Shown in pieces: positions 5,919-23,761 of a stretch of 64,000 bases of DNA (position 1 is the stretch's first letter; each line of letters starts with the position of its first letter). Under the pieces are notes generated by a model. That model was not told the DNA's origin, ran no database searches, and saw nothing but the letters and a program-made list of their open reading frames with translations. Both the position numbers and the translations under genes were made by a program. Source of the DNA: Clostridiales bacterium (GTDB lineage: Bacteria > Bacillota > Clostridia > Christensenellales > Pumilibacteraceae); the NCBI GenBank assembly GCA_022508465.1, contig JAFLVB010000002.1, positions 628 to 64,627 on the forward strand, in the 5' to 3' direction.

Positions 5919-7196
5919 CTATCTGCTAGCTTTGGGGTCAAACGCATCGCGCAGACCGTCGCCGATAAAGTTGAAGCCTAACACCGCAAGCACTATAAGG
6001 ATACCGGCAGGAATCCAAAGGTTTGGATAATACTGCAAGATTTCGGGCTTTTGCGCCGCACTTATCATAGTACCCCAAGCTGCGTACGGTTTGGGAATAC
6101 CGATACCCAAGTAGCTAAGCGTTGACTCGGTAAGAATGATACCACCAAGACCAAGCGTCATCTGAACTATAAGCTGCGGCATGATGTTGGGCACAAGGTG
6201 CCTTACAATTTTACGTGTAGTGCTAAGTCCGAGCGCCTCGGCAGCAACCATATATTCTTGCTCACGCAGGAAGAGTATCTGTCCACGCACGACACGCGCA
6301 ACGCCCGTCCAACCGAGCACTGTCATTATAATCATTAGGTAATAGATCTGATATCTCTGATTGATATCCGCATCCTCGAGCACCGCACCTAAGATCAAAA
6401 GTATGGGGAACTGAGGAACGCAACCGAAGATATCTACTATTCTCATTATAAGCTGGTCAACCCACTTACCGAAGTAACCGGCAAGACCACCGAACAAGAT
6501 ACCAAGGAATGTCTCTAAGAATACGACTACGAAACCAAGTGTAAGAGAGATTCTTCCGCCATACATAAGACGTACAAATACGTCCATACCGTACTCGTCG
6601 GTACCCAGCCAGTGATTGGCACTTATCTTACCCTTTTCATTGAATGTCTTACGGTCCCAAGTATATTCTGCGTATGTATAGGGAATTTTTGTACCATATT
6701 CATCACTAACATAAGCAGCTGCACTTGAGCCTGTCTGCAACATAAAGTATACCGGTTCGCCGGTAGCAGCATCTGTATAGTGTCCATATCTATTGCCGGC
6801 TTCACTATATCCGTCAAAGACAACACCGGGCAACAGCTTGGACTCATCATTAGATACTTTGCCATCTACAAAGAGAAGCGAAGCATCGATTCTTTCGTTA
6901 TAAGTTTCGGTTTTAACAACTTCACGCTTTTCTTCGGGAATAGACAAGTCTATCTCTATTTCACCCCATTGATTATAGAACACAGGGCCTAAAAACGCGA
7001 ACAAGAACAAAACTATAATAGTTACAAGTCCTATCATCGAAAGACGTGAGCGGAAAAATCTTTTTGCCACAAGGCGTCCTGGTGAAACGACTTTTACGCT
7101 GTCCGCAAGAAATTCTTCTTTCTCTTGTAAAGCAGCGTTATTTTCTTTTTCCATATTGTCCTCCTCAAGCACGGAGGTAACTTTATCTTTTTCCAT
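5919..7196 (-). CDS. Opp/Dpp-family ABC permease (OppC-like) with enlarged extracytoplasmic loop
   Basis: BPD-transporter core is present (LREQEYMVAAEALGLSTTRKIVRHLVPN). Start chosen at ATG 7196 (MEKDKV), preceded by GGAGGT. The ORF track extends to 7244 and would overlap the upstream gene. Confidence 0.88.
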   Translation of the reverse strand: MEKDKVTSVLEEDNMEKENNAALQEKEEFLADSVKVVSPGRLVAKRFFRSRLSMIGLVTIIVLFLFAFLGPVFYNQWGEIEIDLSIPEEKREVVKTETYNERIDASLLFVDGKVSNDESKLLPGVVFDGYSEAGNRYGHYTDAATGEPVYFMLQTGSSAAAYVSDEYGTKIPYTYAEYTWDRKTFNEKGKISANHWLGTDEYGMDVFVRLMYGGRISLTLGFVVVFLETFLGILFGGLAGYFGKWVDQLIMRIVDIFGCVPQFPILLILGAVLEDADINQRYQIYYLMIIMTVLGWTGVARVVRGQILFLREQEYMVAAEALGLSTTRKIVRHLVPNIMPQLIVQMTLGLGGIILTESTLSYLGIGIPKPYAAWGTMISAAQKPEILQYYPNLWIPAGILIVLAVLGFNFIGDGLRDAFDPKASR

Positions 7197-7206
7197 ACTG
7201 ACCTCC

Positions 7207-8286
7207 TTACTTGGTAATCTTGACGCGCGGGTCAACGACCGCATACATCAGGTCGGACAAAAGCGTACCTATTACACCCAATATCGCAATGAACATGTTG
7301 TAACCCATAATGAATGGGATATCACCAACGACAAGGGCCTGATATGCTTTATTACCTATACCGGGCAAATCGAATACCTGCTCGGTAATCATAGCACCAC
7401 CAAACAATCCGGGCAAAATTCCCGCTATCATTGTTACGATGGGGATAAGTGTGTTACGGAAAGCATGGCGATAAATTACAGTCTTTTCCGAACAACCTTT
7501 TGCTCGAGCAGTACGTATGTAGTCTGCATTTAAAACTTCGAGCACGTTGGTACGCGTATATCGCATAAAACCGCCTATACCCAAAATTACAAGCGCAACC
7601 ATAGGCAATACCATATGATGCAAAATGTCTAACATTCGCGCCACACCTGTATAGTTCGCTCCTGGAGATTCCATACCTACATATGGGAACCACCCTAACT
7701 GCAATGAGAACACTCTTAAGAGTAAGTTAGCAAAGAAGAATGATGGAAGCGAAATACCCATAAGTACAAGTACCGTTGCGGTATAGTCCATAACGCTATA
7801 CTGATGAGTTGCCGCCGCTATACCAAGCGCAATTGCTATAAAGAACTGCATCACCATGGCTACAAGCGCTATCCAGAACGATATCCACATACTTTGCCAC
7901 ATAACTTCGGAAACCGGCGCACCATATTTAAACGACAAGCCGAGGTCACCTTTGAATGTGGTACTCAACCACTTCCAATAACCTTCAAAGTAGTTAAATA
8001 CAGTACAGAGAGTACGCTGTCCGCTTGTAAGGCTTTCTTTTACATTCGCTTTGTCGTATTCCCATCCAAACTTGATGGCATAATCTTCATACTTGATAAT
8101 TAGACCATACAAATCCTTTTGACGGTCTACTTCCGCTTGTGTTATGGTACCTTGAGCAATTTGCGAAGCAAACTTTCTGTCAAAGTAGTCCATAGGCATA
8201 AGACGGACAAGCATGTATGTTATTATCGATACGCCAACAAGTATAAGGACCGACAATAGCAATCTTTTTATAATATATTTTACCAT
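7207..8286 (-). CDS. Opp/Dpp-family ABC permease (OppB-like, 359 aa)
   Basis: N-terminus MVKYIIKRLLLSVLILVGVSIITY is typical of OppB/DppB. It also has the motif YIRTARAKGCSEKTVIYRHAFRN. Confidence 0.9.
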   Translation of the reverse strand: MVKYIIKRLLLSVLILVGVSIITYMLVRLMPMDYFDRKFASQIAQGTITQAEVDRQKDLYGLIIKYEDYAIKFGWEYDKANVKESLTSGQRTLCTVFNYFEGYWKWLSTTFKGDLGLSFKYGAPVSEVMWQSMWISFWIALVAMVMQFFIAIALGIAAATHQYSVMDYTATVLVLMGISLPSFFFANLLLRVFSLQLGWFPYVGMESPGANYTGVARMLDILHHMVLPMVALVILGIGGFMRYTRTNVLEVLNADYIRTARAKGCSEKTVIYRHAFRNTLIPIVTMIAGILPGLFGGAMITEQVFDLPGIGNKAYQALVVGDIPFIMGYNMFIAILGVIGTLLSDLMYAVVDPRVKITK

Positions 8287-8300
8287 ATCTCTCCATCCAT

Positions 8301-8333: not shown

Positions 8334-8359
8334 TTATAATGTTTTTTGTAAGTGGTTAA

Positions 8360-11300
8360 TTATTTGCACTTAACTTCCCAGAATCTCGACAAAGGTCCAC
8401 TGTACGGCGATCTGTCACTATTGAAAGTATTATCGTCAAACACGTTAGAATTGTACGCATAAACGTTAACACGTTGATATGTCGGGAGCTCAACTGCGAG
8501 ATCCATAATAAGATCATAAGCCTTAGCATAAGTTGCAGCACGTGAAGCATTATCAAGAGTGCTACGGCCTTGGTCTATCAAGTCGGCAAGGCTATTGATA
8601 ATACCTCTTTCTTCCTTATAAAGATCGGTGCTATCATTAAGAATTTCGGGATAACCCCAGTTTCTTACAGAAGTAGCCTGACTGTCTTTATGGTAAACCT
8701 GATACATATCGGGATCTACACCGGAGCCCCAAGCTGCTGCCCAAACAGTAAGAGTACCTGCAGCCAACTTACTAAGAGCGTTGGTATCTGTCTTAACGGT
8801 GATCTTAAATCCATGATCATTAAGGATATTTGCAGCATTTTGCATTGCGGTATAAGCCGGGTGATCATCGGTAGCACCTGCGATTGTAAAGGTGTACTCG
8901 AGCTTATGCTGTGTACCATCGGGAAGAGTTCTAACACCTACTTGAGTTCCGTTTTTAGTGTCATAACCTGCTTTTTGTACCAAGATATCTATTTGAGTAC
9001 CTTTTGGATCATACGAATAGTAAGGCTCTTGCTTAAATGTACTATAAATTCCGGCCGGGTTATCCGGGTTCTGCGGAGAAGCCCAAGATACGCTGGATAT
9101 GGGACGATAGATAAGCGAAGCGAAGTCAGCATAGTATGCCTTGATAAGTCTTGTATCGATAGCATGCATTATAGCCTGACGGATCTTAAGGTCGGGAACA
9201 TATTTAGCATTTATACCTATATAACCATAACCGTTATTAGGAATTGTACCCGATTTAACCGTAGAGCTTGCATTAAGCTGGTTCATGTTTTCGGTTGTTG
9301 CAGACGGATCACCATAGTCGATAGCGCCGGTCAACAACGCGTTAAGAAGCTTAGAAGTATTAACTACCTGATAACGAACATACTTGATCTTGCAGTTAGT
9401 TATAGGCGACTTATTAGCTATAGCTTCGTCATTGCTTGCATATCCTTGACCCGAAGTTGTATAGAAGTACGGGTTACGGATATAGTATACAATGTTATTG
9501 GAAAGGAATTCGGAGAATGTAGGTCTCTCTTCGGGAGTATAATCTTCCTTAGTAAAATCTCTCTTGGAAACTTTATACATACCTGCACCAACAGGTACGG
9601 AAAGAATTTTACCGGACTTAAGAACTTTGTCAAAGTAGTCCTTATCTGCAAACGGGCGGCCTACCGAGATAGGCTTTTTCGGATCATAGCCCGGACAACC
9701 CTCATAGTTAAACGAATGATAGTCAACGGCAGAAGTATATTTACCTGTTGTATCGTTAGTTGCATTGGAATAATAATGCATCGGAGTTACGGTAAAGCTG
9801 AAGTTCCAAATAGCTTGGGGGTCAACTCTATCAATAACTATTTGAAGTACATACATATCTTCCTTGAGAGTAGTAGTACCCATACGGCCTTCGAATGTAG
9901 AACCTGCAGGAAGCTGTTTTACTGTAATACCCTTAATCGTATCAACCGATTCATCGTTATGCTCCTCGAACCATTTACTCTTTTCTTCTGCAGTAAACTG
10001 ATCCAAAGCATTATTACCGGTACCCCAGTATGTAACGATCTCAGCAAGATTACTTGTAAGATTAGTTGAAGTCCAAAGAAGATTCCAGTAATTCTCATCT
10101 GAATCACTTGACTTTAAGCTGCTACGGATTGCCTTACCGTACGTATCGGTCACGATATCGCACTTGGGAGCATCAGCCTCGGATGCGGGAGCTTTATTGC
10201 CATCGGCATCTTCTTTTGTATTATCATTAGCAAGGATATTACCATTGTCGCCGATACCCATTTTAAGGTTAAATGCAATCTTGATCAAAGAATCTCTATC
10301 ATGCCACCATTTCCAAGCATTACCATAGTCGATCATCTTGTCATTCTTTTTAAGCTCTTTACCGTTTTTATCGTAATGACCACTTGCATCACTATCGGTC
10401 TTGTAGGTGTCTATTGTACCATCGCTCTTATAGTCGGCAGTTATATATCCCTCATTATAAAGGAATACTTCCCAAACCTCGGTAAAGCCAAGCGCAACAG
10501 CCTCCAACTTAGCCTTTCTTTCGGCATCCTTTTCGTTCTTGATCTTTTCGTTTTCTTCGATATAGCTATCAAGCTCGGAAATCGCACTACGGTAATCGCT
10601 GTTGATTTCATCCCAGAACATAAATCTTATAGACTCTACGTCCTCAAGAATTTCTTTTCTGTCAGCAAGCTCCTCATATCCTTGGCGATTAACTGCTCTT
10701 TTGTCGTCATCCTTAGCATACATTTCACGGATTTTTGCAAGTCTGAGGTTTGCATTTCCGCTTACAGTCTTATTGAACGATTCGTTATAAGCTTCGTTAG
10801 CATTCTCACTCTGAGTACGATACGCCAACAATCCTTGAATTGCCGTAGAGTATATAGTCGACGAACCTGTGTATACGGGATCGAGATATGTATACAAGTT
10901 AAAGATTACGTCGTTAATCGTAAGCGGCTGCCCATCGCTGAACTTAATATTGTTCTTAATAAGGAACTGATAAGTTGTGTAATAGTCGCTAGCAGGAATA
11001 TTAGCCGGCTTTCTGTCACCCAACTTGGGAGCTTCATCCTTATAATCTTTACCTTCCAAAGTTATAACCTGACTGTAGTTGAGTGCTACTGTAGGCTCAT
11101 CTTCGCCACAATATGGCTGACCGCTTGAATCTGAAGACATCATGCCAATCTGCGTTTGACCGATAATCTCATTATCGTAAGCAGATGTGGAGAAGAAGCT
11201 GTTGAATACGTTGTCAAGCTCGCCTGTGCTGAAAACAACTGCTTTTTCGTCGTCTACCTTGCCGGGCTTATCTCCAGGACCCGGGCATGCAGTCAACAAA

Positions 11301-11365
11301 ACAGTTGATGTTCCCAAAATCACAGCAAGCAAAGCAACACAAAGTATTCTTGCAAATTTTTTCAT
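8360..11365 (-). CDS. Family-5 (Opp/Dpp) substrate-binding lipoprotein, enlarged (1001 aa)
   Basis: Signal peptide with lipobox LLTAC. N-terminal SBP_bac_5-like block (IKFSDGQPLTINDVIFNLYTYLDP) and C-terminal lobe (YGYIGINAKYVPDLKIRQAIMHAID). A long insertion lies between the two. Confidence 0.85.
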   Translation of the reverse strand: MKKFARILCVALLAVILGTSTVLLTACPGPGDKPGKVDDEKAVVFSTGELDNVFNSFFSTSAYDNEIIGQTQIGMMSSDSSGQPYCGEDEPTVALNYSQVITLEGKDYKDEAPKLGDRKPANIPASDYYTTYQFLIKNNIKFSDGQPLTINDVIFNLYTYLDPVYTGSSTIYSTAIQGLLAYRTQSENANEAYNESFNKTVSGNANLRLAKIREMYAKDDDKRAVNRQGYEELADRKEILEDVESIRFMFWDEINSDYRSAISELDSYIEENEKIKNEKDAERKAKLEAVALGFTEVWEVFLYNEGYITADYKSDGTIDTYKTDSDASGHYDKNGKELKKNDKMIDYGNAWKWWHDRDSLIKIAFNLKMGIGDNGNILANDNTKEDADGNKAPASEADAPKCDIVTDTYGKAIRSSLKSSDSDENYWNLLWTSTNLTSNLAEIVTYWGTGNNALDQFTAEEKSKWFEEHNDESVDTIKGITVKQLPAGSTFEGRMGTTTLKEDMYVLQIVIDRVDPQAIWNFSFTVTPMHYYSNATNDTTGKYTSAVDYHSFNYEGCPGYDPKKPISVGRPFADKDYFDKVLKSGKILSVPVGAGMYKVSKRDFTKEDYTPEERPTFSEFLSNNIVYYIRNPYFYTTSGQGYASNDEAIANKSPITNCKIKYVRYQVVNTSKLLNALLTGAIDYGDPSATTENMNQLNASSTVKSGTIPNNGYGYIGINAKYVPDLKIRQAIMHAIDTRLIKAYYADFASLIYRPISSVSWASPQNPDNPAGIYSTFKQEPYYSYDPKGTQIDILVQKAGYDTKNGTQVGVRTLPDGTQHKLEYTFTIAGATDDHPAYTAMQNAANILNDHGFKITVKTDTNALSKLAAGTLTVWAAAWGSGVDPDMYQVYHKDSQATSVRNWGYPEILNDSTDLYKEERGIINSLADLIDQGRSTLDNASRAATYAKAYDLIMDLAVELPTYQRVNVYAYNSNVFDDNTFNSDRSPYSGPLSRFWEVKCK

Positions 11366-11431
11366 TTTGGTTTGTCCTCCTAAAAATTTTATATTTAATA
11401 ATTTTTAAAAAATTACTAATTACTATATTAA

Positions 11432-12997
11432 TTATTCCTCATCGGTGGTAGCTTCACCTTGGTCGCCCTCGGTTTCATCGCCCTCATCAGAACCGCCCGG
11501 GGTCTCACTCGGATCTTGTCCTTCCTCGCCACCGGGAGTTTCTTCGTCGGGAGTGTTCGGTTTTTGCTCTTCACCTTTTTTTGTAAAGCTAATAGAGCAG
11601 TCATCCGCAATATTGTTGCCCTCCGACTTAATCGCCTGCCATCCATCAACATATACAGTTACATCGTAGTCATTTTCAACATAACCACCCTGCAACTTAT
11701 TGTTCTCGTCACGCCAAGTCTTATAAATTTCCTTACGAGTAACTTCATACTCTGCATTAATGTTTACATTAACGAGTGTGCAGTTTTCCATAGACTTAGC
11801 AAAGATACCAACATAACATTCTCTGTCTACATCACTGCCCTCAGTCTTTCTCTCGGCATCAGGGTCTACTCCGATTTCAAATGTTACGATAGTATTTATC
11901 GTAAGATTTTTGATTGTCGCATTTTCGAGTGCTCCAAAGATTCCGCCATAGGTGTTGCCTTCGCTTGATTCACCCGTCCAATGAACTTGATTAATTGTGG
12001 TTTTGCCACCGCTAAGTGTATAACCATTACCCTCAATAGTACCGGTGTAGACAGCATCGACAACAGTATATTTACCCAATTCGATATCCTTAAGCAAATA
12101 TACATTAAGATTGTTTTTAATAGCATTCGTAAAATCCACAGCGTCGTTTACGAGTTCAAATACGCCGTCGATTTCCTTATAGTAAACAACCGTTACCAAT
12201 TTATCTGCGGCAATCGGGAATTCCATCTCGTTTTCGCACTCTTTGTCATAGTAAAACTTTAACGCCGTATTATTGGGACGCGCTACTTTATATGAATTTT
12301 TAACATCATCATTGGATATTTGAGCTCCTCCGTTATAAGTAGCATCAACCAATCTGTCAGCATATTGCTTATAAACAGCAGATTCAAATGTAAAGCTGTC
12401 ATCTGTAAGCGCTTCAAGGTTCTCCCACTCGTCGTTATTATGGTCGGCTATAATGAACTTATTATACTCAGCCCAAATAGCAACCAAAACAACGTCTTTT
12501 GTAACACGGTCACGAGTAAACACCCATTCGGTATCTTCGTAATCGTAATATTTAAGCACAACGTCCTTATAGTTAGGTATATCGCTCTCGGCAATAGCGT
12601 CGCCTGTACCGTTCTCGGTAACATAAACGCCACCGTCGGTAGATGATATCGCAGTATCACGAAGCAACGGCTTGCCGTTTTCGTCAACTTTACATACTTT
12701 CCAGCCGACAAATCTATATGCAGGTCTAACAACCGGCTCAATCACGCTTGTGCCCCCAAACGGGTCAAAGGCATGAACATCATCCTGCACATAAATATAG
12801 CGCTCAACCTTATTGTTAATCATACCACCATTACCGCAATATGTAACTAAATGATCCACTTCCGGCGGTATATAGATACCTCCACCGATGGAGCAACCGG
12901 CCAGTATGCCCGTTGCAAGTATTGCGATTAGCGATACCATCAAAAGACACTTAAATTTTCTCATAATAGTCTCCAATTTAAATTTCGTTTCTGCCAA
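11432..12997 (-). CDS. Lipoprotein of unknown function with Listeria-Bacteroides-type repeat and acidic tail (521 aa)
   Basis: Lipobox LAGCS. Flg_new-like segment is VTYCGNGG...YRFVGWKV. GLUG-like segment is GGIFGALENATIKNL. C-terminal ~50 aa are rich in E, D, G, P and T. It is the first gene of the operon. Confidence 0.6.
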   Translation of the reverse strand: MAETKFKLETIMRKFKCLLMVSLIAILATGILAGCSIGGGIYIPPEVDHLVTYCGNGGMINNKVERYIYVQDDVHAFDPFGGTSVIEPVVRPAYRFVGWKVCKVDENGKPLLRDTAISSTDGGVYVTENGTGDAIAESDIPNYKDVVLKYYDYEDTEWVFTRDRVTKDVVLVAIWAEYNKFIIADHNNDEWENLEALTDDSFTFESAVYKQYADRLVDATYNGGAQISNDDVKNSYKVARPNNTALKFYYDKECENEMEFPIAADKLVTVVYYKEIDGVFELVNDAVDFTNAIKNNLNVYLLKDIELGKYTVVDAVYTGTIEGNGYTLSGGKTTINQVHWTGESSEGNTYGGIFGALENATIKNLTINTIVTFEIGVDPDAERKTEGSDVDRECYVGIFAKSMENCTLVNVNINAEYEVTRKEIYKTWRDENNKLQGGYVENDYDVTVYVDGWQAIKSEGNNIADDCSISFTKKGEEQKPNTPDEETPGGEEGQDPSETPGGSDEGDETEGDQGEATTDEE

Positions 12998-13060: not shown

Positions 13061-13089
13061 AGTATATCAAAATCTATAATCGTTGTCAA
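13061..13089 (-). promoter_or_regulatory. Sigma-70-type promoter of the lipoprotein/Opp-like operon
   Basis: On the minus strand: TTGACA (13084-13089), 17-nt spacer, TATACT (13061-13066). It lies about 65 nt upstream of ATG 12997. Confidence 0.6.
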
Positions 13090-13351
13090 TAAATATTGAG
13101 TTAAATTTTTGTGTAAATTTTGGCTATTGTGATTTTTGTTTTAAATGCTGCTTTTTAATGACTATTCGGTGTAAAATGGCTATTATACAGCTGTTTTGAC
13201 TACAAAAATTCTTTTTTTTGTAAATATAAATGTTGTTTATAGAACTAAACTAATGCCACCTTTGACTAAAAACAAATTTGCAGTTTTTACCACAAAGATA
13301 AATGTTATTTAAGTGATATCCTTTTACCATATTATAATGGTTTTTTGACAG

Positions 13352-13382
13352 TAAAAAACAGCCCCGTTCGTTAGAACGGAGC
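13352..13382 (-). terminator. Rho-independent terminator after the giant protease gene
   Basis: On the minus strand: GCTCCGTTC-TAAC-GAACGGGGC followed by TGTTTTTT. It lies 17 nt after the stop at 13399. Confidence 0.7.
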
Positions 13383-13398
13383 CGTTTATAGTTAGCAA

Positions 13399-16300
13399 TT
13401 ATTTTTGTGCAGACTTCTTTTTGCGTAAGAGCACCACAAGGAGAGATACAAGCATTACAGCGAACAAGCCAACCATAAGGCCTGTGCCACCATTATTACC
13501 TGCTCCGAATGCTACTGTTCCGCAGCTACCGCAACCTTCTTTTTCGCCGCCTTTATCTTCAAGCTCACTGATCTTAGCTTCGCACTGCTCAAGCTTGGTA
13601 ACAAGAGCTGCGTTTTCAGTAGCAAATACAGACTGGTTAGTAGAAGTAAGAGCATCGTATGCCTCGCGTGCAGCCACTACAGCATCTTTATCTTTAAGTG
13701 TAATGTCAGCAGGATCGGGGAGCTCATTGATAAGATCTTTAACCGCCTGACGACGAGCAGCATCATTGCCATCGATCTCAGCCAATCTCTGTTCGCAAGC
13801 TTCAAGGCGATCAAGCAAGCCTTCCTTGATAACAAATACTTGTTGCTCAAAGCTGGACAAGCTGTCGTATCTACCACGAGCGCTTTCGATATCATCTCTA
13901 TGAGCTACGGTCACTTTATTCGCCTCGGGCAATGCGCGTATAAGATCCATAACAATTCTTGTCGTGTCTTCCATAAGTTCGGGCATAAGAAGCGTGCTAT
14001 CAAAGTAGTTAGCCCAAATGAAGTTGTCAAAGCCCTTAGCATTGGACGGTCTTTCTACTACCATACCATACGGATAGCCTGTGAATCCACCGCCTGTGTA
14101 AGACTCATTCTGTAATTGCATGGACGAATTCAAATCAACACGCTTATCATACTCATCATGCATACGTATACTGTTATACTTAAAGGCTCCGCCATCAGGT
14201 GAATATGTGAACGGTTGATAGAAGTTATTATACATCTGCCAGAAGTAAACATCGCCATTTTCGGTCTCTGTTGTTGCATAACCGGCTTCAAGCTCGGGCG
14301 CCTGCAAAGTTTCGAAATTGTAGATTCTTACATCGGAACTTGCAAATGCACCATCACCTATCCATCTTACGCTGTCGGGAATGTTTACCTTAAAGATATA
14401 CTGATTGAAGTAGAATGCATAATTGCCGATACGAATTGTACCATCCATTACAGTAAACTCTGTCGACTGTTGATATAATGTCGGAACAGCAACAAGCTCG
14501 TAACCGCCCTCTACGTATCTATAAAGAGCCAATTCATCAGACTGGAAGTATCTCGGATTTTCGCCGTAGAATACATATCCAAGTACCGAAGAAGCTATAA
14601 ATGCCGTCGGGTGAATATATTCGAGATCAGCACTCAATATACCCAAATAGCGGTAATATTCAGGAAGATCCAATTCTTTATCCGGATAAACCTGATTAAC
14701 TGCGGTATTTGCGAATGCATACATACCGATCGTTTTAGCTTGAGGCATATATACCTTAGTCAAGCTCGTGCATGAATAGAATGCTAAAGCACCGATTTCG
14801 GTACAAGCATCAAGCTCGATAGCCTCTAGCTTATTTTGATAATAGAACGCACCCGTACCTAATGTTTTAGCCATGGGGATATTAACCGTTTTAATCGTAG
14901 CTATCGACTCTCCGGTTTCCTCGTTATTTCCGGGAGCAAATGCATAGTCACCGATATAAGTTGCAACCCTAAGGTCAACACTTTCAAGGTTAGAGCAGCC
15001 TGCAAATGCTTGCTCCGCTATATAAGTACAATTGATAAGTCTGATAGACGGTATTGCAGTATAGCAGAATGCTCCGACACCTATACGTGTAATTCTGGTA
15101 AGGTTACCATTTTCGGTAAAACCACTATCCGCACTCGGCGATACGGTGTTGATAAGCGCAAGGCTTGAGCAGCCGTAGAATGTCGTGTCCGCAATTTCAG
15201 TTACATTGGAAGGCAAAGTAATCGCCTTGAGCTCAGTATTCTCGGCAAATGCACCCATACCTATTTCGGATATTGTATTAGGCAGCTCGATTCTCTCAAA
15301 TACTGTTTTATAGAACGCAAATTGACCTATCTTAGTAATCGGATCTCGAGTATCATCTATTGTTGCAGGGAAGTTAACATCTTTAAGGCTTGTGCACTCA
15401 TAGAACATTAAATCAGTTATATTATGCTGGGGAAGAGTAACCTCTGTAAGTGCAGAACACATAAAGAATATACCATCACCAAACTCCTCGATTCCGCTAA
15501 TGTCAGCTTTCTCGATATAAGTGTTAGCTCCGAATGCATAATCACCTATCTTGGTAACGCCGTCCAAAACATCGTTAGCATTTGTAAATTCTTTTGCGCC
15601 CGGAACGGCAATAAGCATATCGCCTTCTTTGTTATAAATAACACCGTTCTTAGAGGTCAAGTACGCGTTATCAGGTTCTACTTCAAATTCGGCAAGATTT
15701 TTGCATCCATAGAACGGAGTACCTGCCGAAGCGGAAACCTGTCCGTTTTCCGTAGTCCATTTGCAATTCTTATCTATAACTAACTTTCCGATATATTCAC
15801 ATTGCGAGAATGCAGCGGTACCTAATTTTTCAAGGCCTGCCGGCAACTTAAACTCGCCTGCTTCGCCATCTGCCGTTTTACCGATTTCGGTTGCAAAGAA
15901 TGCCTGGTTTCCGATTTCACGGCAGCCGTTTTTGAAGTTAATTTCCTCGATTTTACTATATGCAAACGCAGCTTCGCCTATCGAGTAAACAGGCTTCTCG
16001 AATGTTACTTTCTTTACACTGCTGTAAATGAATGCACCCATTTCGATAACTACATTGTCAGCAGTAAATGTTATTTCTTCCAACTCACCGATATAAGAGG
16101 GAGTGTATTTAGTTTCAACATCGGCATCCGGATTTTCCTGTTCTTCATCCTCATGAACATCCTCTTGTTCCTCGGTCAAGCCATAGAACATCTGAGCAGA
16201 TATTCTTCTCATGGGAAGAGTAACTTTACCTATACCGTTACCAACGAATGCAGCAATACCAGCATAAGTGTTTTCGCCAAATATTACATCGGCATATTTG

Positions 16301-19300
16301 GGACCGTTTTCGCCGTTAAAGTGGTTATGTAAGGACGAGCCGATATTGAAGAATGCACCAATACTTGCACCACGCAATCCGGTAAGGTCAAGCTTGGAAA
16401 CAAACGCCAAGTTAGCAAAAGCATATTTGTCAACAACTCTTACCATCTTAGTGTTAAACAACTCACGATCTGCTTCGCTTATAAGGACAATTTTATTCTT
16501 GCCATCTTTATCATCGCCAAAATCGAAATTAGCTTCTCCACCTGACGCCTTGATACTTGCTTCGATATCTACGCCGATATATTTTTGGTTAGCAAATGCA
16601 TAAGCTGCAATCTGTAACGGCTTAGCGCAGTCACTGGTGTCTACTATGGAAAGTCCCGGAACAGGACCCTCGGCAGCCGTCTCATATTTTGCTATAAATG
16701 CGTATTGGTCAATCTTTTGCAAAGTGGAGGGGAATTTTACTCTTCTCAAGTCAATCATGTATGCGCAAGCGGCTCTACCGATTGTCTCAAGTCCCTCGGG
16801 GAATATGATGTACTCAATACCTTTACGCTCGTAGAACAACGAAGAAGCAATAGTAGTAATATTGAGGTTAGACGGAATTGTCACCGTCATCAAACCTGTT
16901 TTTTCATCTAATATAGGCGTACCATGATATTCGGTAAGCTCATTACCCGTAGTAACAAACTCCTCATATACATAAGCCGCAAACTGTGCGGAATAAACGG
17001 TTGTGTCATACGCTCCGTATACAGGATCGTTGTTTTTGCCGTTTTCGGATATTTTGCAAAGCTGAGCAGTAACAGTAGCAAAAGCCGAGATATTCTTTAC
17101 ATATTCGCCATCATAGTCAGAGCCTCTGTTGGCAGTTACTACAGCCTTAAATATACTGTATTCCTCACCAAACTTAGCAGCATCCGCGCGAGTCATCGGC
17201 CTTACGGCTGCTACACGATCATTGCTCGAAGTCCAACGAATAAAGTATTTACCAGAGATAATATCACTTTCAAGCTCATAATACCATGGGTCATGCTCGA
17301 GCTCGATAATGTATTCTTCACCTGCATCGAAAGCCCAACCCGATACTTTAAACGACAACGAGTTAAGATTCTGGTCTGCCTGAAGTGTGCTTACGGGAAT
17401 TTTATACTTAGCTGCATCTTCGAGCGAGAGCACTTTTACGGTAAGGGTTGCCGAAGCATTGCGATTTACACGCGAGGTAATGGTTACAGTAGCCTCACCT
17501 GCTCCTTCTGCATATATCTCACCTGTTTCATCATTAACTCTGACGATTGCAGGTGCGCTGGATGTGAATACAAAGTCTTCACGCCAAGCTGTAGCCGGAG
17601 TGGGTACAACAGCCTTCATAAGTTCTATCTTTTGACCCTTGATAATAGTTACCGATCTGAGTGTCGAATCCTCCTTCGGGGTGTCATTATAAGATGTCAT
17701 TACGTTTACTTGGTTAGTAACATTATTTTCGGTATAAGAATAAGTAGCATAGTTACCGATATCGCCAAACTGAACGCTCTCCATGTACTCGTAAAGCTCC
17801 ATAAGGTCTATGGTATAGTACGAAGTATTAAACGCATAGTCATAAAGTGTAACCTTGAACTGAGTAAGATATGTACCAAGTTCGGGATGAGCAGCTATCG
17901 CAGCAGCATTATTGAGATTTTCAAGCTGATAAAGTATACCATCTTGAATCTGTTCCCACATATAAGTCAAGTTCAAAGATACAAGGGTTGTTGCATTACG
18001 TTGAGTAATAATCGGACGTAAAGTACCGTCCACAGGGTCAAACGTAGATACATATTCTTCCTTATCCTTATCGTAAGCAGTGAGCGACATTGCCTGTATA
18101 TAATGGTTATCTGTAAGATACATATCAAGATAATACGACGCATTATCAGAGCTGTCTCTTACTACACGAAGCTCGGTATTGGAAATGAACGGAGCATCTG
18201 TATCATACCAGAAATCAGTCGACCAGTAGTATCTGATTCTATTGTCTTCGCAAGCGCAATTTGCATCTTGGCAATCCTCATTGACAATGCATCTCTCCTT
18301 ATCCGAGCATTCGCAACGGCTAAGCATCTTGTTTATATTGTAATCAATTACATCCTGTTTAGTCTTAAATTGGTCAGCATGCCAGTCGAGCACAGGATAG
18401 CAAGTGAAGGTATACTTGTGGTTGTTGACAAAGTCCATTTGAGTCATATCGATCTCAAAGTAAGCACCGCCATATCCACTTGCAGCTGACGCTTTACGCG
18501 CCGAGCGGTAAGTTGAGCCGTAAATATAATCTCCTGTTACAGCATCGGTAATTTCCCAGAACAACCTTTTAGCACCACGAAGGAATCCGGCTACACCATA
18601 GATACCGCTTATAGCCGAATCTGTATTAAACGATACTGCAGCCTTATCTGCTTCTGCATCGGGTCCGGTATAACCTTCGGGCAAATTGAATACATATGAA
18701 CCCATCGGGAACGAATACTCTTGTCCGTTTTCTGTATATTTACCAAGGAGCTGAATGGGCTGAGCATTGCTGTAACGCTTATCGTCCTCGTCGATTGTAT
18801 CATCATTTAAATCCTTAGATGTCTCATAAATTTCATAGTCGATTATGGGTGCATCCGACCAGTCGCCATAGAATGCAAGATACGGAATGTTAAGGTCGAT
18901 ACCGTTTACCTTATCTTCATTTATAAGGCGAACAAAGCCATCTACATACATACCGTTTTTAAAGTTTGCAAGCCATTCTCTGTCCTTGTCGCCAAGAGTA
19001 ATTGTATAAGTAATTTTTACCGAAGACTTAGCTGCGACGGTAATAGTGCTATCCAATTCTTTAGCAACTCCATCCACCTTAAGAGCAGCGGTATAATCTG
19101 TAAGCATACGAGATTTTTCGGTAACCGTCTTCTCATCCGAAGATATACCCTCAGTCATAACATGGCTGCTTATTGTGTAGCTTGCAGACGAGCTACCTAC
19201 GTTTTTAACATAGAATTCTACGGTGTATTCGCCTTTTTTGGACGGATCGTCACCAAGCTCAACCTTGGTACGCTCCTGCTCTACGCCGTTTTTCATTACA

Positions 19301-21798
19301 TACAAATATTGTTCGGTCGTTTCCGATCTGTCAAGGTCGGCAAGACCTGCACCCTGCTTACGCGGAGAATACGGATTGTCTTCCTCGTTATGCGCTATGG
19401 TAGCGGTACTCATAAGAATTTGATATATTCTCTGCTCCATAATGTTAAGGTCAAGCTCACCGTCCTTGTAAAGCTCGAACTTAGCCGCAACATCCGCCTG
19501 TTTCATGTATTGACGAAGAAGGGTAACTACACCTGCCATGTTGGGACAAGCCATAGATGTACCGCTAAAGCGCGAGTATGCAGTCTCGTCACCGGGGATA
19601 GCCGAGTAAATTTCACCACCGTGAGCGGTTATTTCCGGCTTAAGTACAAGGTTAGGAAGCGGACCCCAGTTAGAGAAATCGCTCATAAACGGGCCTGCTT
19701 TCTTTTGCGGATTTACTGTAAAGTATGCTGCGCCACTATTGTCCTTGTTTTTGATAAGAGCAGCAACGTCCATTGTAATCGAGCAGGACGGAATAGTGAT
19801 GTTGTCACCTACCTGCATTCTGATTATACCTGCAGCATTGTTGAATACGATACAAGCAAGTGCACCCTGTCTTGTAGCTTCTTTAAGTTTATCTTCGAAG
19901 TTTATTTGACCACGAGATACAAGAGCTATCTTGTTCTTTACATCTTTACCTGCATAGTTACCGGTATTGCCGACACCGGAAATGGTAACATAAGGAATTT
20001 GCAACTCATATTCAACAAATTCGGAGCTGGCATCAACCAACCTCATCTTCTCTAATACATTGCTTAAATTGCTTAAAGTTATATCTTTCTTTTCGAATTG
20101 GGAATACTTCTTACCATCTTCTTTGGCAGTCGTACCGGCAGCGTCCTCATACATAAAGGAATTAATATAGCCAAGCAAAGTTGTCTTAACGCTATTATCA
20201 ATTTCCGGATCGCTGAGTTTGGTAACGAGAGTGTTCCAAATGTCTTCCATAAAGTTATACGAAGTACCATTAACCTTTGCAGACTCATTGTAATATGCGG
20301 TTGCAGTACCACCGTTATATGTAGCCTCAAGGTATTGCGATTTAACACCGCTTATGGAAGCTACCGCAAATGCCGCATCATACGATGCGGGAGAGCCTAC
20401 CGAACCCGAGTCGGGGTTAGATGTAAGGTTAAGACCGGCATGGCTGTTAAAGCTGGAGCTGTACTCGTTACCTGCTGCAACCAAAAGCGAAATACCTGCC
20501 CTACCTACGCTTTCATAAGCCCTATACACGCTGTTGTACGCACCTACATCTTCCTGGAAACCGGCCGTAGAACCCAAGCTCATGTTGATTACGTCTACAT
20601 CCAAAGTAATGCAGTCTTCAAGAGCGCCAAGCAAAGAGTAGCTGCTTGCACCACCTTCATAGTCCGAGAATACCTTGAATATAGCAAGCTGAGCCTGCGG
20701 TGCAACACCTGTTATACCGGTAATTATCTTACCGTCTTTATCATAAAGGGTCTCTCCGTGTTCGCCCTTAGGGTCATCACTGTGACCTGCGATAATACCT
20801 GCTACGTGAGTACCGTGAGCATTATCTACATGCGAGTTAACTTCGGTATCATAGTCTGCATAGTCAAATGTAAACGGAACCTTTTCATTTCTATAAACGT
20901 CATCTACAGTAAGAACGCCTGTTCCGTTTTCGCCGTCTTCAAATTTGTCTTTCATTTCGTCTTTATCGGAAACCTGATAGCTAAGCGAAAGCATGCCGTT
21001 AGCAAAAACAAGATCAGACAATCTAGACTTTACATAATCCTTTGTGAATTTTAAAGTATTGTTCTTCTTTTGATTCTCAAGATCGAAAAGCGGGTGAGAG
21101 GGATCAAATGCAATATGCTCCCAGTCAAGACCGGTATCGAGAACGGCTGCAACCATACCCTGTCCGGCAATCTTTAGTTCTTCTCGACTTCTTGTAGAAT
21201 CGAAAATACCGGTTCCCATTGCGGCAACGTGGTTTTCTACCGCTTGAATTTCCGGCGCATTATATGTTTCACTTATCATAGTACCCAATACGTTTGCTCT
21301 ATCAGCAATACCGTCGATAGCCTTACGGTCGCCATATCTAATCTCGATAGCAAAGCCGTTCAAGGTATTAACGTAGTTGTACTTAAGTGTTACGTCAACT
21401 TGACGTGCAATCTTATTATATAAAGCTTTTTGCTTATTAATAAGATTTTCGGCAGCATTCTTACCATCTGTGGACAGTCTGTAATCCGAGAATGATGAAT
21501 AGCTTCCCGGATTGGCAAGATATGTATCAATAAGCGTGTTCTCATCCATTGTGACAATCAAAACGACTTTGTCGTCTTTGCTAAGCGCCTTATTGGAGCT
21601 TACAATCTTGTCCGGATCGAGAGCTGACGCAAGATCACTCTCCGCCTGACCAGCTTGAATTGCCGAATTAGTCGAAACATTAGGGTTTATTATACTGTTT
21701 CCAATGAACGCCGTGAATGCCGCTGTGACACCCATCACGCCCACAAGAAGAAATACAACAAACGACGCTAAGTTCAGTCTGAAATTCTTTCTTTTCAT
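13399..21798 (-). CDS. Giant membrane-anchored S8 (subtilisin/cell-envelope-proteinase-like) peptidase with PA, Big_2-like and BspA-type LRR domains (2799 aa)
   Basis: Catalytic triad motifs are AAVLDTGLD, HGTHVAGII and SGTSMACPNMAG. A PA-like insert (KIALVSRGQINFEDKLKEATRQGALACIVFNN) is present. The Big_2-like block ends in ATVTITSRVNRNASATLTVKV. About 870 aa are LRR_5-type repeats (IG..AF..C..L..V..P). There is a C-terminal TM helix plus RKKK. Start ATG 21798 (MKRKNF) follows AGGAGG; the 33-codon track extension was rejected. Confidence 0.9.
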   Translation of the reverse strand: MKRKNFRLNLASFVVFLLVGVMGVTAAFTAFIGNSIINPNVSTNSAIQAGQAESDLASALDPDKIVSSNKALSKDDKVVLIVTMDENTLIDTYLANPGSYSSFSDYRLSTDGKNAAENLINKQKALYNKIARQVDVTLKYNYVNTLNGFAIEIRYGDRKAIDGIADRANVLGTMISETYNAPEIQAVENHVAAMGTGIFDSTRSREELKIAGQGMVAAVLDTGLDWEHIAFDPSHPLFDLENQKKNNTLKFTKDYVKSRLSDLVFANGMLSLSYQVSDKDEMKDKFEDGENGTGVLTVDDVYRNEKVPFTFDYADYDTEVNSHVDNAHGTHVAGIIAGHSDDPKGEHGETLYDKDGKIITGITGVAPQAQLAIFKVFSDYEGGASSYSLLGALEDCITLDVDVINMSLGSTAGFQEDVGAYNSVYRAYESVGRAGISLLVAAGNEYSSSFNSHAGLNLTSNPDSGSVGSPASYDAAFAVASISGVKSQYLEATYNGGTATAYYNESAKVNGTSYNFMEDIWNTLVTKLSDPEIDNSVKTTLLGYINSFMYEDAAGTTAKEDGKKYSQFEKKDITLSNLSNVLEKMRLVDASSEFVEYELQIPYVTISGVGNTGNYAGKDVKNKIALVSRGQINFEDKLKEATRQGALACIVFNNAAGIIRMQVGDNITIPSCSITMDVAALIKNKDNSGAAYFTVNPQKKAGPFMSDFSNWGPLPNLVLKPEITAHGGEIYSAIPGDETAYSRFSGTSMACPNMAGVVTLLRQYMKQADVAAKFELYKDGELDLNIMEQRIYQILMSTATIAHNEEDNPYSPRKQGAGLADLDRSETTEQYLYVMKNGVEQERTKVELGDDPSKKGEYTVEFYVKNVGSSSASYTISSHVMTEGISSDEKTVTEKSRMLTDYTAALKVDGVAKELDSTITVAAKSSVKITYTITLGDKDREWLANFKNGMYVDGFVRLINEDKVNGIDLNIPYLAFYGDWSDAPIIDYEIYETSKDLNDDTIDEDDKRYSNAQPIQLLGKYTENGQEYSFPMGSYVFNLPEGYTGPDAEADKAAVSFNTDSAISGIYGVAGFLRGAKRLFWEITDAVTGDYIYGSTYRSARKASAASGYGGAYFEIDMTQMDFVNNHKYTFTCYPVLDWHADQFKTKQDVIDYNINKMLSRCECSDKERCIVNEDCQDANCACEDNRIRYYWSTDFWYDTDAPFISNTELRVVRDSSDNASYYLDMYLTDNHYIQAMSLTAYDKDKEEYVSTFDPVDGTLRPIITQRNATTLVSLNLTYMWEQIQDGILYQLENLNNAAAIAAHPELGTYLTQFKVTLYDYAFNTSYYTIDLMELYEYMESVQFGDIGNYATYSYTENNVTNQVNVMTSYNDTPKEDSTLRSVTIIKGQKIELMKAVVPTPATAWREDFVFTSSAPAIVRVNDETGEIYAEGAGEATVTITSRVNRNASATLTVKVLSLEDAAKYKIPVSTLQADQNLNSLSFKVSGWAFDAGEEYIIELEHDPWYYELESDIISGKYFIRWTSSNDRVAAVRPMTRADAAKFGEEYSIFKAVVTANRGSDYDGEYVKNISAFATVTAQLCKISENGKNNDPVYGAYDTTVYSAQFAAYVYEEFVTTGNELTEYHGTPILDEKTGLMTVTIPSNLNITTIASSLFYERKGIEYIIFPEGLETIGRAACAYMIDLRRVKFPSTLQKIDQYAFIAKYETAAEGPVPGLSIVDTSDCAKPLQIAAYAFANQKYIGVDIEASIKASGGEANFDFGDDKDGKNKIVLISEADRELFNTKMVRVVDKYAFANLAFVSKLDLTGLRGASIGAFFNIGSSLHNHFNGENGPKYADVIFGENTYAGIAAFVGNGIGKVTLPMRRISAQMFYGLTEEQEDVHEDEEQENPDADVETKYTPSYIGELEEITFTADNVVIEMGAFIYSSVKKVTFEKPVYSIGEAAFAYSKIEEINFKNGCREIGNQAFFATEIGKTADGEAGEFKLPAGLEKLGTAAFSQCEYIGKLVIDKNCKWTTENGQVSASAGTPFYGCKNLAEFEVEPDNAYLTSKNGVIYNKEGDMLIAVPGAKEFTNANDVLDGVTKIGDYAFGANTYIEKADISGIEEFGDGIFFMCSALTEVTLPQHNITDLMFYECTSLKDVNFPATIDDTRDPITKIGQFAFYKTVFERIELPNTISEIGMGAFAENTELKAITLPSNVTEIADTTFYGCSSLALINTVSPSADSGFTENGNLTRITRIGVGAFCYTAIPSIRLINCTYIAEQAFAGCSNLESVDLRVATYIGDYAFAPGNNEETGESIATIKTVNIPMAKTLGTGAFYYQNKLEAIELDACTEIGALAFYSCTSLTKVYMPQAKTIGMYAFANTAVNQVYPDKELDLPEYYRYLGILSADLEYIHPTAFIASSVLGYVFYGENPRYFQSDELALYRYVEGGYELVAVPTLYQQSTEFTVMDGTIRIGNYAFYFNQYIFKVNIPDSVRWIGDGAFASSDVRIYNFETLQAPELEAGYATTETENGDVYFWQMYNNFYQPFTYSPDGGAFKYNSIRMHDEYDKRVDLNSSMQLQNESYTGGGFTGYPYGMVVERPSNAKGFDNFIWANYFDSTLLMPELMEDTTRIVMDLIRALPEANKVTVAHRDDIESARGRYDSLSSFEQQVFVIKEGLLDRLEACEQRLAEIDGNDAARRQAVKDLINELPDPADITLKDKDAVVAAREAYDALTSTNQSVFATENAALVTKLEQCEAKISELEDKGGEKEGCGSCGTVAFGAGNNGGTGLMVGLFAVMLVSLLVVLLRKKKSAQK

Positions 21799-21899
21799 AG
21801 GTCCTCCTTGACTTGATGAAATGTAAATTATTAATAGATCGTCAGGCTGTCGCCCGAGACTTATTACAGGATAAAATACCCGATAATACGAGTACAAGA

Positions 21900-21928
21900 A
21901 TTATATCATATGAATATATACTTTGCAA
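21900..21928 (-). promoter_or_regulatory. Sigma-70-type promoter of the protease gene
   Basis: On the minus strand: TTGCAA (21923-21928), 17-nt spacer, TATAAT (21900-21905). It lies about 100 nt upstream of ATG 21798. Confidence 0.6.
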
Positions 21929-21997: not shown

Positions 21998-23761
21998 TCA
22001 TTTATTGTCGCCGCAAAAATGACGATAGATGAAAATTTGACTTTTATTTACATTTTTTACCACTAAAATCGCTTCATTATCGGGTATAAAGGCCCCTTCC
22101 TCACAGATGTCTTCACCGCTTAAATTGACAATTAAAGTAAGCGAAATGTCGCCATCACTCCTTACAATCTTAAAAACATTATTTGACGGGGACTCGTCTG
22201 TGCAAGATCCGCTAAAAACAGATGCATATTGTCTTCTTATCTCGCCAAGGCGCTTATAATGAGCTATCAGTTCGGCGTTTTCATTACCCCAGGGGTAGCA
22301 TTTTCGGCAAAACGGGTCCTCGTGCCCGCTAAGTCCCGCCTCATCTCCATAATATAGACATGGCACACCCGGCAGGATATACTGAATAAGCGAGGCGAGC
22401 TTCACCCGCTGCGCCGCCTCGATGATATCCGATTGAGTATATTCCGCTCTTTCGTCCTTGCTTTGCGGGCGCTCGTCGTTAGATAATGCCGTAATTATTC
22501 TATCCGTATCATGAGTGCCGAGTATATTCATCATAGACAAAAAGACCTCGGACGGGTAGTCGTTTATAAGCTCTCTTAACGTTTTTCTTAGCAGCGTATT
22601 ATCACCTGTCAATAAAAACTCTATTATTCCTGCTTTAAATGGATAATTTGTCACCCCGTCAAGCTGTTTTCCCAAAAAGTAGCTACGTCTACTGCCATAA
22701 GCGAATTTGCGAGCGGCGTTTTCCCATACTTCGCCAATTAGCGTGACATTAGTATCACTATGCAGCCTGTCCAAAAAGGCGCTATGCAGCTCGTCTGCAA
22801 CGTCAAGACGCCACCCCACTATACCTTTCCGCCCCCATCTCTCAATTACGCCATTACTGCCAAGCATAAAATCCATATATGAGGGCGACGCCTCATTGAC
22901 TTCGGGCAGAGTTTCAAATCCCCACCAACATTTATACTCGTTTGGATATCGGTTAAAACTGTACCACTCGTAGTATAGGCTTGACTGAGACTGATACGCT
23001 CCCAACGTATCATAATTGCCGTATCTATTAAAATATTTGCTATCGGCACCCGTATGCGAAAACACCCCGTCAAGGATAATACCAATACCTCGCTTTTTTG
23101 CCTCTAAAACGAGACTATCGAAATCCTCCTCGGTTCCTAATGTTGAGTCTATCTTTTCGTAGTCGCCCGTATCGTATCTATGACTGCTCGCCGCCTCGAA
23201 TATCGGATTTAAGTAGATATACGTTACACCTAAATCCTTTAGATAGTCGAGTTTTGATATAATGCCTTGTAAATTGCCGCCAAAAAACTCGTTGTTATAC
23301 TTGCCGCTTTCGTCAGGCAAATGTGACGGCACAGCATACCAGTCCTCTTGAAATTTAGCACCCGTCTTTATATTTGGCTTGCCCTCAATATAAAAACGGT
23401 CGGGCATTATCTGATAGATAACCCCGCCGCTTAGTGGTCTAAAGCTGCCCTCGTATACAAGCTGAAGATAGTCGCTACCATTTACAATCAAGTTTAAAAA
23501 CTCGTCGCTGCCATATCTGACGCCGTCAATCAAAAAATAGTAAAAATACAGCCCACAGGTAGTTATATTTAGGTTTACGGTAAAGCCGTCGTTAAACCTA
23601 TCCATATCGTAATAAACAGGCACATGTCCCTCGCCTTCCTTAGTAAGCACAAGGGTAGCAGAGTGCGCCTCGCCCAATATGTTTACGGTAAGAGGGTGGC
23701 CTGCTTTTACGCCACCCACTCTGCTCTTAAATCGACTATATAGTGGGCAATACTCAATCAT
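21998..23761 (-). CDS. GH13 alpha-amylase-family enzyme (neopullulanase/cyclomaltodextrinase-like, cytoplasmic)
   Basis: GH13 conserved regions are present: YQIMPDRF, GWRLDVADEL, IGEVWE, LGTHDTDR. No signal peptide. It overlaps glgP by 8 nt. Confidence 0.85.
   Translation of the reverse strand: MIEYCPLYSRFKSRVGGVKAGHPLTVNILGEAHSATLVLTKEGEGHVPVYYDMDRFNDGFTVNLNITTCGLYFYYFLIDGVRYGSDEFLNLIVNGSDYLQLVYEGSFRPLSGGVIYQIMPDRFYIEGKPNIKTGAKFQEDWYAVPSHLPDESGKYNNEFFGGNLQGIISKLDYLKDLGVTYIYLNPIFEAASSHRYDTGDYEKIDSTLGTEEDFDSLVLEAKKRGIGIILDGVFSHTGADSKYFNRYGNYDTLGAYQSQSSLYYEWYSFNRYPNEYKCWWGFETLPEVNEASPSYMDFMLGSNGVIERWGRKGIVGWRLDVADELHSAFLDRLHSDTNVTLIGEVWENAARKFAYGSRRSYFLGKQLDGVTNYPFKAGIIEFLLTGDNTLLRKTLRELINDYPSEVFLSMMNILGTHDTDRIITALSNDERPQSKDERAEYTQSDIIEAAQRVKLASLIQYILPGVPCLYYGDEAGLSGHEDPFCRKCYPWGNENAELIAHYKRLGEIRRQYASVFSGSCTDESPSNNVFKIVRSDGDISLTLIVNLSGEDICEEGAFIPDNEAILVVKNVNKSQIFIYRHFCGDNK

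Follow-up and report, generated by a model that had tools for sequence, protein, structure and literature searches.

Why should a bacterium place the gene of a giant surface protease, extended by a long leucine-rich repeat (LRR) array, directly beside the genes of a peptide-type importer? The question was raised by a stretch of 64,000 nucleotides from a Clostridiales bacterium of the Pumilibacteraceae (assembly GCA_022508465.1, contig JAFLVB010000002.1, positions 628 to 64,627), which is termed the window in the following. An earlier interpretation of the letters alone, the sequence-only reading, had recognized a 2799-aa S8 peptidase fused to BspA-type LRRs and had suggested that it could form a proteolysis-uptake module with a neighboring Opp-like importer. 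Our follow-up analysis leads us to regard it as probable that the locus is a conserved seven-gene module for digesting proteins outside the cell and importing the peptides, in which an active surface subtilase of the cell-envelope proteinase (CEP) type would be combined with an operon encoding a conserved lipoprotein (designated U), a substrate-binding protein (SBP), and the transporter components OppB, OppC, OppD, and OppF. The protease gene and the parts of its product are arranged as follows.

13399..21798, minus strand: surface subtilase-LRR protein gene, 2799 aa, starting at ATG 21798 after an AAGGAGG Shine-Dalgarno sequence
21184..21798, minus strand: putative signal peptide (aa 1 to ~33) and propeptide-like region (to ~aa 205), recognized from the sequence
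19345..21165, minus strand: Peptidase_S8 catalytic domain, aa 212-818 (Pfam PF00082, E 2.5e-39)
19759..19968, minus strand: PA domain, aa 611-680, inserted between His and Ser (Pfam PF02225, E 8e-13)
18877..19236, minus strand: fn3_5 (Fn1-type) domain, aa 855-974 (Pfam PF06280, E 1e-9)
16939..18876, minus strand: stalk of ~5-6 Ig/Fn-like beta-sandwich domains, aa 975-1620 (AlphaFold2 and Foldseek)
18238-18321, minus strand: lineage-specific Cys-rich insertion in one stalk domain, aa 1160-1187 (sequence)
17449-17658, minus strand: Big_2 domain in the stalk, aa 1381-1450 (Pfam, E 3e-5)
14308..16938, minus strand: BspA-type LRR_5 array of ~20 repeats, aa ~1621-2497 (Pfam and IGxxAF-type units)
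13564..14307, minus strand: conserved post-LRR region with two helical 'LP..T..D....A...Y..L' repeats, aa 2498-2745
13402..13563, minus strand: C-terminal anchor, aa 2746-2799, with a GCGSCG Gly/Cys motif, a transmembrane (TM) helix at aa 2773-2791, and an RKKKSAQK tail

The open reading frame (ORF) would span 13399..21897 on the minus strand if opened at TTG; the ATG at 21798, with its AAGGAGG and a 6-nt spacer, gives the product of 2799 aa, and an identical protein has been called on the source contig (ENA ERZ27293306 k141_789916), and its title in nr reads 'MAG: leucine-rich repeat protein [Clostridiales bacterium]'. Both the ORF and the Pfam domains bear out the predicted fusion, with an LRR array of ~877 aa. 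The catalytic Asp, His, and Ser lie exactly where the sequence-only reading had put them, namely D221 (21136-21138), H328 (20815-20817), and S748 (19555-19557); together with the oxyanion N444 (20467-20469) they are invariant in alignment A1, and the anticipated PA insert is found inside the S8 match, between His and Ser. The Cys-rich stretch and the acidic loop (aa 1876-1895) that interrupts the LRR_5 array were likewise located exactly, while the Big_2-like domain, formerly placed at nt ~17428-17655, and the array, formerly placed at nt ~14308-16935, were recovered by Pfam at close to these positions, the array also agreeing approximately with the conserved columns. LRR_5 was matched in six stretches with E 5e-74 and 246.6 bits against a gathering score of 27.7. 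At the N-terminus a signal-like sequence is visible; the propeptide-like region gave only a sub-threshold match to Inhibitor_I9 (13.1 bits, cut-off 21.2), and PF05922 is present in several protease homologues.

Behind the catalytic half, the alignment to C5a peptidase reaches ~aa 993, and the remaining stalk was modeled with AlphaFold2 (aa 975-1640, built on 14 homologues). The model revealed an all-beta string of beta-sandwich domains with a pLDDT of 83.5, for which Foldseek retrieved multi-Ig proteins, e.g., S-layer proteins and Big_2 domains. These generic matches had low TM-scores, owing to the multidomain query, and the result supports a predicted Ig-like stalk and nothing beyond. The Cys-rich insertion contains seven cysteines, SRCECSDKERCIVNEDCQDANCACEDNR, and was modeled as a helical stretch with the lowest confidence (block means 59-78); the segment is missing from many aligned homologues, and a similar motif was seen in one of 18, P0009. 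It may form a disulfide or metal knot.

The C-terminal part points to a membrane anchor, with the protease head distal to it. Family-profile searches with the post-LRR region (aa 2498-2745) gave no match. The C-terminus carries no LPXTG motif, and among the NCBIfam CTERM/sortase models searched, none matched except LPXTG_anchor, which covers the TM and tail part only and stays sub-threshold (12.7 bits, cut-off 15.9). Among the homologues listed, most end in a TM helix and basic residues, some in a longer acidic tail, and a few without a TM end. A Gly/Cys motif (GCGSCG, KKGCGS, KGCSGS) directly before the C-terminal TM helix was observed in many of the homologues P0002-P0120 and is lacking in others; it may be a sorting or lipidation signal.

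Is such a protein an isolated curiosity, and is its protease likely to be active? The homologue search yielded more than 120 protein clusters of ~2250-2810 aa, which share the composition S8, PA, (fn3_5), (Big_2), and LRR_5. When one genome per species was scanned, relatives were found in at least 499 genome stretches, the best 80 of which served as the locus set and showed a near-full-length protease match wherever the contig was long enough. On these sequences, the protease-LRR fusion is a large family and not a one-off. The sequence-only reading had named substituted catalytic residues in orthologues as a finding that would count against it; in an alignment of 195 homologues, Asp, His, Asn, and Ser are kept in 193, 194, 195, and 195 members, respectively, the two exceptions in the triad being truncated or contig-edge ORFs, and the oxyanion Asn and the GTSMA motif are retained in essentially all. 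Identity to the window protein amounts to 49-62% in the catalytic core, the best-conserved region, versus 33% in the LRR array, there mostly at structural positions.

This pattern bears on the notion that the protein is primarily structural or adhesive, its LRR and Ig arm attaching to cells or particles, its protease serving self-processing or shedding, and its proximity to Opp being a historical relic. Such a role would suit the abundance of LRR_5 and Flg_new surface proteins, two more of which lie in the window (37935-42806 and 62961-63947), as well as the ORFs taken as LRR-only paralogues that stand beside the protease in several loci. We nevertheless consider it rather improbable, as an arm of this kind would hardly account for a triad, oxyanion Asn, and GTSMA motif kept almost throughout the family, for a catalytic core that is the most conserved part, or for a linkage to Opp that has outlasted rearrangement into two gene orders while the other flanks decayed, as described below.

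As to the LRR genes themselves, both of those in the window are encoded on the minus strand, and the product of 37935-42806, 1623 aa long, combines two Flg_new repeats with eight LRR_5 stretches; both modules seem to be standard in the surface proteins of the source organism. In ten loci (L008, L015, L017, L021, L025, L031, L052, L053, L059, and L075), one to four extra ORFs of ~930-1400 aa that cluster with the protease by BLAST stand next to it. In some loci such ORFs are accompanied by a recurring family, c12, of ~200-890 aa.

To which class does the catalytic half belong? The sequence-only reading had pointed to lactocepin PrtP and streptococcal C5a peptidase, and this assignment is upheld by the Pfam architecture and by sequence matches in the PDB, of which the top 11 are C5a peptidase, SpyCEP, or CEP with E 1e-46 to 1e-49, followed by the next S8 protein at E 1e-22 and by classical subtilisins at ~1e-6. 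The triad, the PA insert, the Fn1 domain, the beta-sandwich tail, and the nearest solved relatives thus support a predicted CEP/C5a-peptidase type of S8 enzyme. The best solved matches are C5a peptidase (ScpA/ScpB) and SpyCEP (ScpC) (7edd, 1xf1, 3eif, 5xyr; E ~1e-48), which are aligned over S8, PA, and Fn1. Unlike the window protease, these enzymes are LPXTG-anchored, have ~1100-1650 aa without LRRs, cleave specific host factors, and show no linkage to Opp, and their identity with the window protein is confined to the catalytic module. The best NCBIfam match, NF040553 (SGO_0316/SGO_0317 LPXTG serine peptidases), likewise extends over S8, PA, and Fn; with 217.9 bits against a cut-off of 1400, and without LPXTG, the window protease is not a member.

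The kinship with C5a peptidase and SpyCEP introduces the possibility that the enzyme is directed at the host, cleaving chemokines, complement, immunoglobulins, or mucins, with the LRR array as an adhesin and Opp either scavenging the products or being unrelated. The best 80 of the at least 499 stretches come without exception from Clostridia-type genomes, almost all of them metagenome-assembled genomes (MAGs), labeled, among others, Candidatus Coproplasma, Scatosoma, Borkfalkia, and Gallimonas; one cultured isolate, Anaerocaecibacter muris CLA-AA-M11 (Pumilibacteraceae, locus L020), is included. All samples with a stated source came from the gut or feces of animals or humans or from the rumen (sheep, goat, deer, yak, chicken, rabbit, mouse, human), which would agree with a host-directed role, as would a sub-threshold match of the LRR region to the adhesin HupY/LrrG (87 bits) and a region in five of 43 U proteins that also occurs N-terminally in IgA1-specific M26 proteases. 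The same breadth can be turned around: a cluster kept this uniform in chicken, rabbit, mouse, human, deer, and yak is unexpected for a protease specific to a host factor, and the occurrence in chicken, rabbit, mouse, human, and ruminants is more readily explained by a housekeeping role than by a host-specific one. Since, moreover, neither scpA nor cepA shows a tight two-way linkage with an importer, and conservation is highest in the catalytic core rather than in the LRRs, we regard a host-directed function as unlikely.

Further evidence for the proposed digestion-and-import module comes from the gene neighborhood. Downstream of the protease and on the same strand follow U, SBP, OppB, OppC, OppD, and OppF, as listed here with their control signals.

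21900..21928, minus strand: sigma-70-like promoter of the protease gene, TTGCAA-17-TATAAT with an extended -10 TG (consensus match)
about 13346..13387, minus strand: intrinsic terminator downstream of the protease gene, with a T-run and a stem of 14 bp
13061..13089, minus strand: strong promoter-like site ahead of the U-Opp operon, TTGACA-17-TATACT with TG, 11/12
11432..12964, minus strand: U, conserved lipoprotein of 510 aa; LAGC lipobox, a domain resembling the InlB B-repeat/Flg_new, and a region resembling GLUG/Peptidase_M26_N
8360..11365, minus strand: giant family-5 substrate-binding lipoprotein (SBP_bac_5), 1001 aa
7207..8286, minus strand: OppB-type permease
5919..7244, minus strand: OppC-type permease (OppC_N and BPD_transp_1), gene caller start 7196
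3217..5907, minus strand: OppD-type ATPase, 896 aa
2218..3213, minus strand: OppF-type ATPase

All ORFs of the 80 genome loci were clustered into families without prior labels. Besides the protease itself (80/80), five families recur in at least 49 loci, i.e., SBP in 52, U, OppB, and OppC in 50 each, and OppD/F in 49, and the next commonest flanking family reaches 18. Of the 80 loci, 60 were shown by tblastn to have the Opp genes next to the protease, without exception on its strand; the order is protease-U-SBP-B-C-D-F in 48 and U-SBP-B-C-D-F-protease in 12. The remaining 20 are mostly too short to judge, and wherever each flank measures 8 kb or more (43 loci), the Opp operon is present. The reverse search, in which an SBP alignment was run against metagenome contigs, gave 80 loci, 49 of them informative, and the protease is adjacent in 46: in 41 the S8 domain is seen, in two more it is truncated by the 10-kb flank limit, and in three a contig end leaves the LRR part. 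Taken together, 60/80 and 46/49 demonstrate that the linkage holds in both directions, and it has survived rearrangement into two gene orders while other synteny decayed. The adjacency foreseen by the sequence-only reading, which had regarded protease and transporter genes that are never neighbors in related genomes as evidence to the contrary, is accordingly conserved.

The close coupling of a protease and an importer could also be expected of a peptide-signal system like that of RRNPP-type quorum sensing: a peptide of the pheromone or bacteriocin type would be exported, matured by the protease, and taken back into the cell through Opp. Opp transporters do import signaling peptides in Firmicutes. 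What makes such a system very improbable here is that regulators, small-peptide genes, and modification enzymes are absent from the families that recur near the protease in the 80 loci, where the five named above are the only companions, and that the known pheromone-processing proteases do not resemble an enzyme of the CEP type with 2799 aa, a PA domain, and a long stalk.

The seven-gene module would instead operate as a feeding system. The protease would be exported via its N-terminal signal peptide and kept in the membrane by its C-terminal TM helix, so that the catalytic head (S8, PA, and Fn1) would be borne outward on the Ig-like and LRR arm. There it would cut extracellular proteins into oligopeptides, which would be captured by the lipoprotein SBP and imported by the ABC transporter as a source of amino acids and nitrogen. 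Proteolysis and its substrates, as well as peptide import, are predicted from domain and gene content, and a nutritional purpose is suggested by the analogy with lactic acid bacteria.

For the importer, the sequence-only reading had delimited an Opp-like system at 2218-12997; the Opp-type ABC importer was corroborated, and the part of this interval at 11432-12964 turned out to be the separate lipoprotein gene U, which had been folded into the importer. The operon has every component of the Opp/Dpp (PepT) importers, a group to which the Mollicutes type, with its enlarged subunits, belongs: a family-5 SBP, two BPD_transp_1 permeases, one of them with OppC_N, and two ATPases with an oligo_HPY region at the C-terminus; the matches to the OppD and Opp4A-type NCBIfam models are below the equivalog cut-offs, as is the match of OppD to the Mycoplasma OppD model MMSYN1_0167 (300 bits). 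It differs from them in four respects, namely the 1001-aa SBP, an insertion of ~100 aa in the nucleotide-binding domain of OppD, the leader gene U, and a membrane domain on OppD that is specific to this contig. The SBP, with 1001 aa in the window and 821-1003 aa in the called homologues, is about twice the usual size, and Pfam covers it partly; the family-5 fold seems to be divided by an insertion of ~300 aa (~aa 185-500). The insertion in OppD, which is charged (rich in Lys, Asp, Glu, and Asn) and follows Walker A (OppD aa ~560-680, nt ~3900-4230 on the minus strand), is kept across the family with 45-55% identity (L005, L015, L020, and others). OppD owes its 896 aa to a membrane domain of ~435 aa with ~11 TM segments fused at the N-terminus, which occurs only in the window contig, as the OppD of the other 80 loci aligns from ~aa 440 on; it could be a real lineage-specific fusion or two merged genes.

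A further component of the operon is U, which lies directly upstream of the SBP gene in 50 of the 52 loci with a called SBP (none was called in L038 and L042), whichever side the protease is on. The U protein of the window has no Pfam match on its own sequence, and a word-based homologue search found three proteins, whose alignment gave an AlphaFold2 model with a pLDDT of 36. An alignment of 43 U sequences, 41 of them derived from the loci, showed a lipoprotein-signal-like N-terminus in these 41 and the lipobox Cys as the sole invariant column; the family profile matches the InlB B-repeat (E 5e-6), and scans of the individual members with Pfam detected Flg_new in 20, the non-catalytic N-terminal region of M26 IgA1 proteases in five, Pectate_lyase_5 in three, and GLUG in one. 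Two candidate functions were discarded: BLASTP revealed no similarity between U and the SBP that would mark a second binding protein, and a PrtM-like maturase does not fit, as U has no peptidyl-prolyl isomerase domain and goes with the SBP gene, not with the protease. From its signal and position, U is read as a putative accessory surface lipoprotein of the transporter.

Several observations weigh against a single digestion-and-import module. The terminator predicted by the sequence-only reading at 13352-13382 was recovered as a 14-bp stem with T-run at 13387..13356, and it is followed by a 330-nt AT-rich spacer and by the TTGACA-17-TATACT site of the Opp operon. With a strong terminator after the protease and an Opp promoter of its own, co-transcription is unlikely, and in the window the two look like separate transcription units. 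The promoter proposed for the protease is present at 21928..21900 and is to be taken as a consensus match only, since promoter-like matches as a class (34 observed, 29 in shuffles) are not enriched. A search of the window for CodY boxes gave five matches where 4.7 were expected, none of them upstream of the protease. Peptide specificity is an assumption, because transporters with family-5 SBPs also carry nickel, opines, and other solutes. The partners are separated in a few loci, of which L019 and L030 are the best counter-examples in the forward direction; L030 may be a second copy, as it belongs to the same MAG as L051, which carries the Opp operon. In the reverse direction, three SBP loci with long flanks (two distinct sequences, L145/L146 and L150) have no protease, and no alternative protease but only unrelated genes were found nearby. 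Finally, part of the synteny reflects shared ancestry, because most loci come from related gut Clostridia.

Some further features of these neighborhoods may be recorded. In L145/L146 and L150, an ORF without Pfam match (385 and 421 aa) stands directly before the SBP gene, where U would be expected. Of the five CodY-box-like matches, three (11400-11414, 12954-12968, and 13105-13119) are located in an AT-rich part of the Opp operon that comprises its promoter, its leader, and the spacer between U and SBP. In the window, the protease is directly preceded by a complete glycogen operon (glgB, glgC, glgD, glgA, glgP, and an alpha-amylase-family gene; 21998-31662, minus strand), which is kept only in the nearest relative, L003. 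A divergent pair of genes, c8 (~500 aa) and c7 (~275 aa), stands just upstream of the protease in a subset of the loci (L014, L028, L029, L033, L037, L038, L042, L047, L055, and L060-L063).

How does the module compare with systems already described? In lactic acid bacteria, a CEP together with Opp is the established route of protein nutrition (PMC2827410), and the functional logic, from surface proteinase through Opp to the supply of amino acids, would be alike. The CEPs of these bacteria (PrtP/lactocepin, PrtS, and PrtH) and the window protease have in common a PA-split S8 domain, Fn3_5, a beta-sandwich tail, and a helical segment before the anchor. In CEPs the first beta-sandwich alone is recognized, as Fn3_5, with further beta-sandwich domains behind it (PMC10535647); in the window protease, too, Pfam recognizes the first Fn-like domain alone, and the modeled tail of further beta-sandwiches follows. 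The differences begin after this tail. An LRR_5 array of ~877 aa is placed between the Ig tail and the anchor of the window protease, while LRRs are not mentioned in a survey of CEP architectures (PMC10535647), and the attachment to the cell wall by LPXTG or SlpA that characterizes CEPs is replaced by a C-terminal TM helix. Lactococcal PrtP is accompanied by the adjacent PrsA-like maturase PrtM, whereas no protein of the PrtM/PrsA type is among the conserved neighbors of the window family, and the conserved lipoprotein U has been added. In L. lactis SK11, prtP/prtM and oppABCDF2 reside on different plasmids (PMC2827410), whereas here the two units stand side by side in nearly every genome.

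Other relatives share single modules. The LRR_5 array links the window protein with BspA-type LRR proteins (Tannerella BspA, Treponema LrrA, and HupY/LrrG of group B Streptococcus), and a B-repeat of the InlB type is present in U; in the BspA-type adhesins the LRR is the functional head, whereas in the window protein it is an internal module of a protease. Considering where the nearest families fall short, the CEP survey without LRRs, and the separate plasmids of SK11, we take four elements to be new: the fusion to LRRs, the anchoring by a TM helix, the additional lipoprotein, and a genomic coupling that is nearly obligate. A literature search for the protease-LRR family or the cluster, in which few subscription journals were covered, found no description. 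On its gene content, the cluster is a predicted CEP-plus-Opp proteolytic system in a distinct architecture, tightly clustered across many species of gut Clostridia; as a concept this is not very surprising, and the comparative genomics behind it is solid.

The role of the LRR array, which the sequence-only reading had supposed to target the protease to a host or particle ligand, is compatible with ligand targeting, with a rigid spacer in place of the B/H domains of CEPs, or with a docking surface for U and SBP. From the last of these a bolder proposal could be developed, namely that the seven gene products are assembled into a single, physically coupled machine at the surface, whose LRR arm docks U and SBP so that peptides pass directly to the transporter, and which would be the main nitrogen route of a large and mostly uncultured clade of gut Clostridia. 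By analogy, it might be likened to a Gram-positive counterpart of a polysaccharide-utilization locus, for proteins. We hold the coupled machine to be a doubtful extension of the digestion-and-import module, and the likeness to a polysaccharide-utilization locus is just as tentative.

Giant surface proteins of bacteria that are common in the guts of humans and animals but hardly ever cultured, which have been annotated only as 'leucine-rich repeat protein', can now be viewed as putative CEP-type enzymes, in which an LRR array and a TM anchor extend the known architectures of the class. Recognition of the cluster would improve the annotation of hundreds of genes. The conserved protease-lipoprotein-Opp cluster also leads to a testable prediction of how these bacteria may feed, by extracellular proteolysis and peptide import, which bears on protein fermentation in the gut, and Anaerocaecibacter muris CLA-AA-M11 is a cultured organism in which this prediction can be tested.

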